Shown here piece by piece: positions 12,658 through 62,771 of a DNA stretch of 64,000 nt (positions are counted from its first letter, which is position 1; each line of letters begins with the position of its first letter). A program made the position numbers and the translations under genes. The stretch is from IMG/VR virus record IMGVR_UViG_3300027762_000001; one strand, given 5' to 3'. The notes below the pieces were generated by a model that saw only the letters and a list, made by a program, of their open reading frames with translations, made no database searches and was not told where the DNA came from. Source of the DNA: a virus.

Positions 12658-12674
12658 TAGCATTAGAAATAAAA
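12658..12674 (+). promoter_or_regulatory. conserved phage promoter-like motif (variant)
   Basis: TAGCATTAGAAATAAAA between a terminator and an RBS. Confidence 0.6.
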
Positions 12675-12697
12675 TTAATGAAAGGAAAGTGAATAGT

Positions 12698-12862
12698 ATG
12701 ATTAAAAAGATGAAAGAATGTTGGAGTGAAATGGATAGAGGTGAAAAATTAAAAACAGTATTATATGGTGCCGCAGGAATTGGATTTGTATTTATGGTAG
12801 CTGGGACATATGGAGCTGTAAAATTATCAAAAGAATTATATGAAATTATGAAACCGCAATAA
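12698..12862 (+). CDS. small single-TM protein (54 aa, MIKKMKECWSEM...), not in ORF track
   Basis: RBS AAAGGAAAGTG, hydrophobic VLYGAAGIGFVFMVAGTYGAV, flanked by the promoter motif and a terminator. Confidence 0.7.
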   Translation: MIKKMKECWSEMDRGEKLKTVLYGAAGIGFVFMVAGTYGAVKLSKELYEIMKPQ

Positions 12863-12864
12863 CG

Positions 12865-12891
12865 AAAAAGAGCCGAAAGGCTCTTTTTTTT
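12865..12891 (+). terminator. intrinsic terminator
   Basis: AAAAGAGCC-GAAA-GGCTCTTTT plus T-run; near copy of 12621-12644. Confidence 0.85.
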
Positions 12892-12898
12892 GCAATTA

Positions 12899-12917
12899 TA
12901 GCATAAGATATAAAAGG
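12899..12917 (+). promoter_or_regulatory. conserved phage promoter-like motif
   Basis: TAGCATAAGATATAAAAGG. Confidence 0.7.
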
Positions 12918-59220: not shown

Positions 59221-59224
59221 ATCC

Positions 59225-61615
59225 TTACCTCCTATGAAGCCCGCATGCCATTTTAAACATACTGTCCATATGCTTTATAGCCCCTGTAATATATCCAGGA
59301 TTTACAATGTGGTTTCTATTTTTATATTGGTCATGCTTTAACTCAATTAAGGAAGATGCTGTCTTTTCTAAAAATTCTCTTGAGTCTACTATGTCATCTA
59401 CTACTTCATTTAATTTAGCGTAGACTTTTCCTTTTGACACTTCTGCAAGCTTTTCATTAAAGTGAGTCGCTAAAGTCATAATAGCTGCTACATCTCTCAT
59501 GTGCTCACTTCTTTTTTCTATTGCTATCTTTTCAAATGCAGTAGATAAATTCTGTGACTCCTTTGCAAATTTACTTACTTGGTCAAATACAGCCATGCCA
59601 GTTACACCAGATGATAGAGCAGCGCCTGCAACTAAAGCTCCTAATACATCAGCTGCTACAGCATCTACGACATCTTTATTTACAACTTTCTCTCTTACAA
59701 ATTTCATAGTGTCGTCTACCCTATTACTTACTTGAGCTCCTTCTAATCTTCCAGGCTCAGCTCCTTGAGGTAATTCAAAAGTTACAAACGGCTCATTTTT
59801 TGCTCTTTGTAAAATCTCTGATATCTTAGGTGAATCAAAGTTTAATACTTTTAAAACTCCACGAACTTCATTTATTGCCATGTGCTGATAATCTTTATGA
59901 ATAGCTTTAAAGATAGCTTTAGACTTATCTACATAATTTACTTTTACATGATAAGTTTCTCTATATTTATCTGCTAATCTTATCTCAATGTTATTTGTAG
60001 TTGCTGCACTTTTAAATAATTGGAAGTCGCCTTCGGTAGAGCCTACCATGTCATGTAAATCTTCTGGATTTTTAAGATAACCTTTTATGACTCCTTTTAT
60101 CTTTGTAACTAAAGTTTTTCCATCAGTTACAAATACTTTTCCAGCTTTTGAATTTATAATTAATGACCTAGGTAATATTTTTATTACATCCATTTCATTT
60201 AATCCAATCTTTTTTGATGTAACCTTTATAAATTCTTCATATGGCAATTCATTAAAGCTTTGACCATCTAGTAAAACTAAAGTTATGCTTCTATAATCCA
60301 TATCAACGCTAGTGTCTCCAAAGATTGTTTTTAATGAATCATCATATGTTACAGGTCTTAGAGTTAAAATCTTAACTTGTGCCCCATTACTATTTGGAAT
60401 AGTGTAAGAATTATCAAAGCTACTATCTGATTCTTTCACTTCTCCATTTTCTATTTTAAAACTTTTTATCTTAATGTGTGCAAGTCTTGATGGGTAAAGA
60501 GCTTTGTCTCCATCGAACGCAACGAACACGTCGCCTTCATTTAAAGATTCGATGCCGACTGATGGAAGCTTTAGTCCATCACCTTTAATTCTTTTACATA
60601 AAAATCTTTCGTTGTTATTTAAAATTTTCATCTTATTATCTTTTGTCACAACGACTTTTATATTATGTTTTTGTTCTACACCATCTACGCTTATGTAGTC
60701 AGAGATGATAACGCCTTGGTTCATGCTTATCTCTTTACTTTTGGCTTCGTCTGAGATTTCAGGGAACGCAACGCATGAGCCACTTGGCATGCTTGAAGCA
60801 TTTTCAAAGTTAATATCTTTTAGTCTTGTAAAAATATTTACAGTATCATCTTTTTCATTTTTTAATTCTTCTGCTTCTTTGGCTAATTTTTCAACTTCTC
60901 TTTTTGTCACAGCAACTTTCACAACTTCTGCCAATTTTTCCCAATCCTTATCAGTTGTCACCTTCATAGTTGCTATATTATCTAGAGCCTTTGCGATTTT
61001 TTCTATGCCATCATTTATTTTATTTGCTGTCACATAATTTCCGTTTGGATTTCCTTTTGACATCTCTTGGTCTTGGATTCTTAAAATGTCACCTAAAAAT
61101 CCTATCGATGAAGTTGTGTTGACCGACTTTTCTGTGCCGAGGTATGGCTTAAACTCTTCAACGGGAGAGTCGCTTTTTTTGCCATTATAAATTCCATGAA
61201 TAATTTTTTTGATATTTTCTCTAGAGTATGGTACTCTTTGATTATCTAGTTTAATAATGTCAAACGGAATAAATTCTCCGTCCATAATCATAAATGGCAG
61301 TTCCAAAGTTGCGTCTTTAATTTTGACGGAAGCGACTCCCTGACCTTCATTTACATAATCAGATTTTTCGACGTTATACGACATGGGGGCAACACTAATG
61401 CGTACAACCGTTGGTGCGCCTATGTTTGAGAGTTCTGACAATGTATATTTATGAACAAAGTTTTCTATATTATCAACTGTTGGTTGATAAATATTGACGC
61501 CTGCATATTTAGAAATTGCAAAATCCTCTTTTCTAATATCAAATTGTTGCTTCTCCTCTTTGAAACCAAAAGATAAAGACGCCTCGAACGCGTCGCTGGT
61601 TTTGTAATTTTTCAT
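59225..61615 (-). CDS. large putative virion head/core protein with multiple K-x-A sites
   Basis: SKYA, IEKIA, VEKLA, FKSA, SKFA, FEKIA, LEKTAS; first gene of the minus-strand tag cluster; AGGAGTG RBS. Confidence 0.65.
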   Translation of the reverse strand: MKNYKTSDAFEASLSFGFKEEKQQFDIRKEDFAISKYAGVNIYQPTVDNIENFVHKYTLSELSNIGAPTVVRISVAPMSYNVEKSDYVNEGQGVASVKIKDATLELPFMIMDGEFIPFDIIKLDNQRVPYSRENIKKIIHGIYNGKKSDSPVEEFKPYLGTEKSVNTTSSIGFLGDILRIQDQEMSKGNPNGNYVTANKINDGIEKIAKALDNIATMKVTTDKDWEKLAEVVKVAVTKREVEKLAKEAEELKNEKDDTVNIFTRLKDINFENASSMPSGSCVAFPEISDEAKSKEISMNQGVIISDYISVDGVEQKHNIKVVVTKDNKMKILNNNERFLCKRIKGDGLKLPSVGIESLNEGDVFVAFDGDKALYPSRLAHIKIKSFKIENGEVKESDSSFDNSYTIPNSNGAQVKILTLRPVTYDDSLKTIFGDTSVDMDYRSITLVLLDGQSFNELPYEEFIKVTSKKIGLNEMDVIKILPRSLIINSKAGKVFVTDGKTLVTKIKGVIKGYLKNPEDLHDMVGSTEGDFQLFKSAATTNNIEIRLADKYRETYHVKVNYVDKSKAIFKAIHKDYQHMAINEVRGVLKVLNFDSPKISEILQRAKNEPFVTFELPQGAEPGRLEGAQVSNRVDDTMKFVREKVVNKDVVDAVAADVLGALVAGAALSSGVTGMAVFDQVSKFAKESQNLSTAFEKIAIEKRSEHMRDVAAIMTLATHFNEKLAEVSKGKVYAKLNEVVDDIVDSREFLEKTASSLIELKHDQYKNRNHIVNPGYITGAIKHMDSMFKMACGLHRR

Positions 61616-61844
61616 AATTAAAAATCACTCCTTTTTTATATTTTAACTTTTAAAATAACCTTCATCATTTAAGCTAATTATAACACAGGGATTTTATTAT
61701 AAACAAACAAAGCTAAAGTTCAAAATTCAATTGTAAAAAAACATAAACAAAAGTATTCTTTATGTTAAAGTTTACCTTGGTATAAAAATCATATTTCTTA
61801 ACAATTAAACATATGTTCTTCATAAGTAAATTTATTCAAGTTTT

Positions 61845-62405
61845 GTAAGACACTTGAAGTGTCCAAGAAGTGTCCACAAGTGTCCACGCCTAATATTTTC
61901 CAGCACCCTCAAACCCGCTCTGCTCTAGCTCCCATTTTTTGGGCAAATTTGAAGTGTCTTCTAGTGTCCACCCAGTGTCCACCTAGTTTTTCCAACATTT
62001 AACATTTACAAATAAAGGAAAAAGCTGAAAGCCCAACGGACAGTTAGGCTCTTATATATATATATATATATATATATATTATTATTATTATAATAAGAGA
62101 AATTTGGACACTTTTATACGAAATAAAACCCCCTCAAAAAATTTTTTTTTATTTTCATTTTTTCATTTTTCAAAAAAGCAAAAAAAAAATAAATATACCC
62201 CCCTTTATATTTTTTTAGGCAAAAAGTGTCCAAATTTGCCGTAACTCAACTCGCACAACGATTTCGCGTGGACACTTAAATTGCTGGTAGACACTTCAAA
62301 AAATGGGAGTAGTCCTAGAGCGGATTACAGCCATTTGGGAAATTTTTACTTTGGACACTTGTGGACACTTAGGCCATGGAAGTGTCCACCTAGTTATGAC
62401 ACTTT
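61845..62405. repeat. origin-like region: about 15 AGTGTC(C) repeats in inverted arms around an AT-rich (TA)n core
   Basis: AAGTGTCC-type copies at 61857, 61868, 61878, 61952, 61962, 61973, 62224 and 62380. Reverse copies at 61848, 62105, 62268, 62289, 62351, 62361 and 62398. (TA)n at about 62053-62078; 16-bp inverted repeat 62100-62115/62222-62237. Confidence 0.75.
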
Positions 62406-62753
62406 CTTACATTTTTTTTCTCTACAACATAGTGGTATCAATGGTTTTCAGACTTTTGTAAACACCAGTATACACATTTTCCCAGACTTTTACAACTCGG
62501 ACAAGCTTACTTAGCTTGTCCAGAAACCATATTTTAACAGTATGATTTTGTATATATATTTTTACAGATAATCCCTGTAAATGTCTTACAGTAAACGTAT
62601 ACAAAACCTTACTTTATATATTTTAAGTCAATATATATATAAAAAACATACAGGATATATACAGAAGTTATGTAAATATAAAACATTTATTACTAACATG
62701 CACATCTCCCCATTTTTAATTTATATATATTTTTTTAAAAATTTTATATATAG

Positions 62754-62771
62754 TAGTATAAGATATAAAAG
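62754..62771 (+). promoter_or_regulatory. conserved phage promoter-like motif
   Basis: TAGTATAAGATATAAAAG. Confidence 0.7.

Follow-up and report, generated by a model that had tools for sequence, protein, structure and literature searches.

A candidate private promoter family with a TATAAG core in phages carrying a portal-linked RNA polymerase

What starts transcription in a phage that encodes its own bacterial-type RNA polymerase (RNAP)? The question is raised by a 64,000-nt stretch of the IMG/VR virus record IMGVR_UViG_3300027762_000001 (here, the window), a phage segment with 31% G+C in which a fused beta-beta' RNAP gene is part of the portal operon and an 18-bp motif, TnGYATAAGRWATAAAAG, recurs between genes. 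A sequence-only reading of the window had proposed that these are early promoters read by the fused polymerase. We have little doubt that the motif is a promoter, and it is very probably not one read by the unmodified host sigmaA holoenzyme. As to its reader, we lean slightly towards the view that it is a promoter of non-structural units, private to the family of phages with a portal-linked RNAP, and is read by a phage sigma factor on the phage RNAP.

Motif copies in the window

Eight exact matches to the pattern TAGYATAAGRWATAAAAG were found in the 64-kb window and none in 100 shuffles. All 13 positions reported in the sequence-only reading matched with no more than two mismatches, every one on the plus strand. 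When a weight matrix built from these sites was run over the window, the scores were two-peaked, with the 13 sites set apart at 23.6–33.0 bits and the next best hit at 12.2 bits, so no copy in the window was missed. Three further matches, each with three mismatches (23076, 42899 and 54397), fall within genes and were taken as chance occurrences. The minus strand carries no copy, and all 13 are in the sense orientation relative to the next gene. The candidate promoter copies are listed below, with the ribosome-binding site abbreviated as RBS and the number of amino acids given as aa.

12658-12675, plus strand: variant copy TAGCATTAGAAATAAAAT, two mismatches, 23.6 bits; hexamer at 12661-12666, predicted start at about 12672-12675, terminator at 12620-12641 directly upstream, start codon 22 nt downstream
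12899-12916, plus strand: copy TAGCATAAGATATAAAAG, exact, 33.0 bits; hairpin and T-run upstream, RBS GGAG and then ATG 17 nt downstream
13194-13211, plus strand: copy TAGTATAAGGAATAAAAT; heads a MerR-like gene (13210-13710) and two more genes, terminator at 13144-13159
19568-19585, plus strand: copy TAGTATAAGAAATAAAAT; heads a lone 71-aa gene (19613-19828) between minus-strand genes
22023-22040, plus strand: copy TAGCATAAGAAATAAAAG, exact
22673-22690, plus strand: copy TAGTATAAGGGATAAAAG, at most two mismatches and found by the weight matrix
23329-23346, plus strand: copy TAGCATAAGATATAAAAG, exact; heads 23396-25661, which includes a 3D-domain protein, terminator at 23284-23307
36321-36338, plus strand: copy TAGCATAAGAAATAAAAG, exact; at a divergent junction with minus-strand tail genes
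38674-38691, plus strand: copy TAGCATAAGAAATAAAAG, exact; terminator at 38635-38657 upstream
39265-39282, plus strand: copy TAGTATAAGGAAGAAAAG; heads 39304-40938 (SLH-domain protein), terminator at 39222-39236
40989-41006, plus strand: copy TAGTATAAGAAATAAAAG, exact; heads an eight-gene unit (41037-44092), terminator at 40958-40972
44215-44232, plus strand: copy TAGTATAAGGTATAAAAG, exact; heads a run of small genes to about 48704, terminator at 44172-44193
62754-62771, plus strand: copy TAGTATAAGATATAAAAG, exact; heads the first unit after a 1.1-kb non-coding region

Terminator hairpins were called directly 5' of the copies at 12658, 13194, 23329, 38674, 39265, 40989 and 44215, a T-run lies within 35 nt upstream of 11 of the 13, and nearly every copy is preceded by a hairpin plus T-run. 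The RBSs that follow are of the strong Gram-positive type, with the RBS-led start codon 16–49 nt from the motif (median 27 nt) and about 135 nt away at two sites. The terminator calls, T-runs and start-codon distances bear out the location described earlier for the motif, after a terminator and shortly before an RBS. Each copy has the preceding cassette's terminator on one side and an RBS on the other, so that the genome consists of insulated cassettes, each made up of terminator, promoter and gene(s). The suggestion that the motif precedes small accessory genes only was partly correct: the genes are mostly small and unknown, but units that encode a MerR-like helix-turn-helix (HTH) protein, a 3D-domain protein or an SLH-domain protein are also headed by it, and one motif-headed plus-strand operon ends in an NlpC/P60+SH3 hydrolase. 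The absence of the motif in front of structural genes was confirmed for the window, where neither the portal-RNAP block nor any gene on the minus strand has a copy before it.

Because most copies directly follow intrinsic terminators, a new start is needed at the motif, which is the only conserved element there. This bears on the suggestion that the motif is not a promoter at all and serves instead in RNA processing, as a leader element or as the operator of a DNA-binding regulator. The short, constant distance from the motif to the RBSs would suit such a role, as would the hairpins that often include its 3' half in the relatives described below. Set against these, in addition to the terminators, are the strict orientation with the downstream gene, the -10-like hexamer within the motif and a copy that lies 1–2 nt before a tRNA gene, and we regard a non-promoter role as very improbable.

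The core hexamer and the host sigmaA holoenzyme

The window motif opens with T-15, any base and G-13; motif positions 4–9 form a -10-like hexamer, (C/T)ATAAG, and the nine conserved bases RWATAAAAG follow. More than 100 sites from five lineages were compared, and every one has G at -7. This G is present in 13 of 13 window copies and in all sites of two related genomes (G001 and G004), Salmonella phage Arash and Vibrio phage D69. The first base of the hexamer in the window is C or T, half of the copies having C at -12. Window copies read TAG, with A at -14 and no TG at -15/-14; TG was found at this position only in Arash, D69 and one third of the G001 sites. The bases 3' of the hexamer are uniform within a genome and differ by lineage (ATAAAAG, ATTAAAG or GTGTA). 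The common denominator is the hexamer TATAAG, usually with G at -13, plus TG at -15/-14 in the phages of Proteobacteria. No signal for a -35 element was seen in any genome analysed, with information content at -35 of no more than about 0.5–0.9 bit, and the absence of a shared -35 noted previously in the window was borne out by upstream information content of at most about 0.5 bit per position.

The segment TAGYAT, which had been put forward as a possible -10 box, is not one, because its second base, the would-be essential A-11, can be any base in the relatives (TnGTATAAG). The conserved hexamer YATAAG lies three bases downstream of it. A SigF/SigG-type -35 element in GYATA was also considered and was rejected, since start codons 16–17 nt after the motif, and a tRNA 1–2 nt after it, are too close downstream. 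The DNA hairpin upstream of the start that characterizes the sites of the N4 virion RNAP was not seen in the window: weak pairing was predicted at one of the 13 motif sites (-2.5 kcal/mol), with no hairpin within or upstream of the motif.

T at -7 is one of the two most important bases for -10 recognition by sigma70-type factors. The hexamer (C/T)ATAAG departs from the sigmaA/sigma70 -10 element (TATAAT, with A-11 and T-7), and the window motif is accompanied neither by a TTGACA -35 element at 16–18 bp nor by TG at -15/-14. With G at -7, no -35, no TG and a lineage-specific 3' half, the motif fits the earlier description of a phage-specific promoter-like element rather than a sigmaA promoter. 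The nearest bacterial counterpart is the extended -10 promoter (TGnTATAAT), which has the hexamer in the same register and shares TG at -15/-14 with the Arash and D69 sites, the element in these two phages, TGnTATAAG, being one base away from it. If the sites, which precede many small genes typical of early regions, were early promoters read in this way by the unmodified host sigmaA/sigma70 holoenzyme, their uniformity could be put down to cassette duplication. We consider this improbable. The critical T-7 is replaced by G in every copy, and window copies have A at -14, with C at -12 in half of them. The nine bases after the hexamer, which would cover the discriminator and start region, are conserved, and where lineages differ in them they do so in a coordinated way; genuine TATAAT promoters are found in the same genomes on other operons.

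Two promoter classes are present, TATAAG-type on non-structural units and ordinary TATAAT on structural and RNAP operons. On the non-motif strand, where the structural, RNAP and packaging genes lie, 33 of 71 upstream regions contain a perfect TATAAT in the sense orientation and 11 contain one antisense (p=0.0013), while motif-strand upstream regions showed no sense bias of TATAAT. The second class rests on this orientation test because a generic sigma70 pattern scan of the AT-rich window was not above shuffles (73 versus 78 expected, and 90 versus 85). Candidate promoters of the second class in the window are as follows.

37834-37863, plus strand: TTGAAT-18-TATAAT with TG, directly before the NlpC/P60+SH3 hydrolase gene (37940-38599)
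61616-61720, minus strand: TTGAAC-16-TATAAT and TGTGTTATAAT, before the minus-strand structural block (61615), as read from the sequence
22047-22019, minus strand: divergent extended -10 TGCTATAAT for the SNF2 helicase gene, TTTAAA-17-TATAAT with TG, overlapping the motif copy at 22023

The sequence TGCTATAAT is the 5' flank ATTA plus the TAGCA of copy 22023 read on the minus strand. The helicase extended -10 and this copy overlap back to back, and so the two could be mutually exclusive. The copies at 12899 and 38674, neither of which has a minus-strand gene beside it, share the flank ATTATAGCA.

Co-occurrence with the phage RNA polymerase

The polymerase gene of the window has no motif in front of it and lies downstream of the portal gene.

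3598-5565, plus strand: portal gene (phrog_16240), followed by a small gene and then the RNAP gene
5783-12613, plus strand: fused beta-beta' bacterial-type RNAP, 2276 aa (Pfam Rpb2_6, 2.4e-64; Rpb1 domains 1-5)

A search of IMG/VR with the RNAP recovered five contigs with fused homologues that are 44–52% identical. Two of these are complete genomes with terminal repeats, G001 (166,758 bp, RNAP 51% identical to that of the window) and G004 (160,540 bp, 44%). In a first scan, copies on the sense versus the other strand numbered 27 and 0 in G001 and 21 and 1 in G004, and with the core pattern the counts were 38 and 0, and 25 and 0, respectively. The consensus is TnGTATAAG(A/T)AATAAAA(G/C) in G001 and TnGTATAAGA(T/C)ATTAAAG in G004, and the start codon follows at a median of 31 nt and 27 nt. 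In both genomes the RNAP gene is on the strand opposite to the motif, in a motif-free structural arm. A tRNA-Ile gene in G001 begins 1–2 nt after a motif copy, which places the start within the motif and shows that the motif is not a translation signal. The motif was also found in further metagenome lineages with fused RNAPs that are 44–56% identical (L101, L102/103, L104 and L034). The distant lineage L109, which has a 2031-aa fused RNAP only 30% identical to that of the window, includes four intergenic sites beginning TGTATAAGAAnA (nTGTATAAGAAnAATAGA), each after a terminator and before an RBS. Among the fused-RNAP relatives examined, the motif was present in every one with enough sequence. 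Searching IMG/VR with the exact window pattern gave single chance matches only, and unrelated phage contigs that match the pattern by chance have one copy each.

At several sites in the relatives, though not in the window, a strong hairpin (-15 to -25 kcal/mol), followed by a T-rich tail, takes its 5' arm from the 3' half of the motif (AAGnAATAAAAG). These sites are at 55840, 62589, 66206, 71338, 98577 and 108374 in G001 and at 4591, 74631 and 82899 in G004 (loci L069-L072, L076, L079 and L080). Possible roles for the hairpin are a terminator for upstream read-through, which motif-started transcripts would escape, a promoter-proximal attenuator or a 5' stabilizing stem-loop.

Salmonella phage Arash (OQ632216.1, 53% G+C) and Vibrio phage D69 (OZ195729.1) share with the window the gene order portal, small gene, RNAP (gp204-206 in Arash) and have a family of TATAAG-core elements on one strand. 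They differ from it in their Proteobacteria hosts and in a split RNAP, encoded in Arash by two genes, that is about 26% identical to that of the window. GTATAAG occurs 36 times on one strand of the Arash genome versus four on the other (controls 8 and 6), and 27 sites are within four mismatches of TGGTATAAGTAAAGTGTA, with none on the other strand. With no prior assumption made, the most strand-biased 8-mer of the Arash genome was GGTATAAG (30 versus 1). Start codons lie 12–51 nt downstream at most of the Arash sites. D69 showed no enrichment of GTATAAG; the sequence GTTATAAG was found 18 times on one strand and once on the other, and there are 18 copies of an element beginning TGTTATAAG, the sites, TGTTATAAGtAAyATGTA, standing before RBSs. 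In these two phages the 3' half of the motif ends in AAAGTGTA or ATGTA, in contrast to ATAAAAG in the window. The Arash paper makes no mention of promoters (PMC10585845), and the citing papers found look, from their titles and abstracts, unrelated to Arash transcription.

Candidate readers and known promoter systems

Sigma-like proteins are encoded in the relatives. The structural arms of G004 and G001 encode a protein of about 300 aa that is weakly similar to Arash gp10, and a profile of this family matched SigF (1.3e-5) and SigA (4e-5) over regions 2 to 4. A canonical sigma with region 2 and region 4, closest to SigF (2e-24), is encoded on the motif strand of both genomes and in G001 lies directly behind a motif copy. 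The syntenic position in the window is occupied by a 71-aa gene.

Two side observations concern these proteins. The canonical sigma of G004 (58326-59783; L078:18326-19783) has an unusual architecture for a sigma, with a C-terminal extension of about 290 aa that includes two repeated HTH-like modules (KITREQLLK...GTS...IADKYG...GNYI). The structural-arm sigma-like protein of the G001 contig (P0001, L074:14055-14945) is listed by NCBI under a metagenome-assembled genome of 'Herbinix sp.', a hint that the hosts of the clade are Lachnospiraceae/Clostridia.

Of all proteins in preparations of Arash particles, RNAP beta gave the largest number of spectra, and RNAP beta' and the sigma gp10 were present as well (PMC10585845). 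This finding, and the position of the RNAP gene in the portal operon without a motif before it, fit an enzyme delivered by the virion.

A promoter read by a phage sigma on the phage RNAP would account for near-identical, oriented copies at the heads of units (13/0, 38/0, 25/0 and 27/0, sense/other strand) and for the co-occurrence and co-variation of the motif with the phage RNAP across lineages, Arash and D69 included. Lineage-specific bases shared by all copies in a genome are expected if the motif co-evolves with a private reader. In the mechanism we propose, a phage sigma70-family factor would bind the hexamer and transcription would start 6–9 nt after it, inside the ATAAAAG part, with the lineage-specific 3' half serving as discriminator and start region. 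Host sigmaA requires T at -7, and the G present there would keep the host holoenzyme off and make the signal private. Most likely the fused beta-beta' polymerase is the enzyme on which the sigma acts, and our preferred candidate for this sigma is the structural-arm one. The fused RNAP, produced together with the portal and possibly packaged in the particle, would fire the motif promoters at the start of the next infection, and host sigmaA or a second sigma would use the TATAAT promoters to transcribe the structural genes. A bolder form of this proposal, which we hold only tentatively, is that a virion-delivered holoenzyme of bacterial-type RNAP and divergent phage sigma reads TATAAG, a code kept from phages of Clostridia to those of Salmonella and Vibrio. 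To the same tentative degree, the start-proximal half of the promoter may co-evolve with each lineage, cellular primary sigmas wanting T at -7.

Several points weigh against a phage sigma acting on the phage RNAP. The window encodes no sigma gene, neither the structural-arm sigma nor the canonical SigF-like one, and the canonical sigma gene behind the motif in G001 and G004 could itself be the reader or could act on the host core enzyme. The start position and timing of transcription from the motif are inferred, and some of the genes behind the motif seem to have roles in the cell wall or in lysis and not early roles. Rhizobium phage RHph_TM30, in which RNAP subunits are encoded, showed no enrichment of GTATAAG, though a variant of the motif was not searched for there. 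Finally, the particle proteome of Arash comprises 116 proteins, ribonucleotide reductases among them (PMC10585845), and presence in the particle is therefore weak proof of packaging.

Phage sigmas that work on the host core enzyme include SPO1 gp28, T4 gp55 and phiEco32 gp36, and the T4 late promoters read by gp55 consist of a single element, TATAAATA. The phiEco32 gp36 promoter, tAATGTAtA, also has no -35 and is read on the host core, with the start 6–8 bp downstream (PMC8948821). These systems resemble the present one in that an element in the -10 region alone defines the promoter, and there is a partial resemblance in TGTATA, though the sequence of the motif does not match the phiEco32 element. 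They differ in that their sigmas use the host core and drive middle or late genes, whereas here the element is 18 bp long with an invariant G-7, precedes non-structural genes and occurs alongside a phage-encoded core polymerase. A phage sigma that reads the motif on host core RNAP, leaving the fused polymerase to serve another purpose, would make sense of the canonical sigma (SigF, 2e-24) of G001 and G004 and of its place behind a motif copy in G001. We judge it unlikely, however, as no such sigma is found at the syntenic position in the window, a sigma whose own gene depends on the promoters it reads cannot set the cascade going without some other, earlier trigger, and motif and RNAP gene go together even in very distant lineages.

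The layout of the motif also recalls the early promoters of AR9, AAATATATATTAT-6N-G+1, which are highly conserved, have no -35, start 6 nt downstream and are used by an injected multisubunit RNAP (PMC5312081). In AR9 and phiKZ, as here, dozens of near-identical AT-rich elements with no -35 stand before non-structural genes (PMC5312081, PMC7598289), and the reader proposed here would likewise be a phage multisubunit-type RNAP carried in the particle. The AR9 sequence is unlike TnGYATAAGRWATAAAAG. In addition, the AR9 and phiKZ RNAPs lack a sigma and are made of split, highly diverged beta/beta' homologues, whereas the window enzyme is a single chain near bacterial beta-beta' and sigma-family proteins are encoded in its lineage. 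There is only a slim chance that the fused polymerase recognizes the motif with no sigma, or with a non-sigma factor, in the manner of the phiKZ/AR9-type virion RNAPs. The closeness of the enzyme to bacterial beta/beta' (Rpb2_6, 2.4e-64), the sigma-family proteins in the structural arm and the sigma in Arash particle preparations all argue against it.

No enzyme or promoter of this kind is described in a review of jumbo-phage transcription (PMC7824862), literature searches for the motif string and for Arash transcription returned nothing relevant, and in the literature searched we found no description of promoters for phage-encoded bacterial-type RNAPs with their own sigma. A consensus that extends from phages of Firmicutes to Arash and D69 makes it possible to annotate transcription units in a large and mostly uncultured group, and to compare phage and host holoenzymes directly on TATAAG and TATAAT templates. 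It also offers a natural case of changed -7 specificity in a sigma70-family protein. If the proposal is true, these phages run a host-independent early and middle programme with an enzyme of cellular type, and the cultured phage Arash is a ready model for the change in the -7 pocket of sigma. The compact terminator-promoter-RBS unit, orthogonal to host sigmaA, could serve as an expression part.

Among the large genes on the minus strand of the window are those for the terminase, the SNF2 helicase, a fibre protein of 2139 aa and a ligase-like protein. The minus-strand structural block ends with a gene (48907-49092) for a stand-alone 61-aa GerE/LuxR-type HTH protein (Pfam GerE, 2e-16, with weak matches to sigma region 4), which might act as a transcription factor for one of the two classes of promoter. 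No tRNA genes were found in the window, and a megablast search of the window against cultured phages gave no match.

Twelve copies of AGTGTCCAC, with at most one mismatch and in both orientations, are found within 530 bp (61858-62389) of the 61616-62750 non-coding region. They adjoin a long (TA)n/AT-rich tract and sit between the divergent structural block and the first motif-driven unit. The cluster looks like an iteron array, maybe a replication origin or another protein-binding site. Two similar structured leaders of the form CCTTTGAGCAGTG...TTGCAAGTGT...CTGCTCAATTTTATTTAA, at 47290-47380 and 48330-48431, precede the genes that begin at 47381 and 48432; they have a loop sequence in common and look like repeated hairpin or terminator-like elements.

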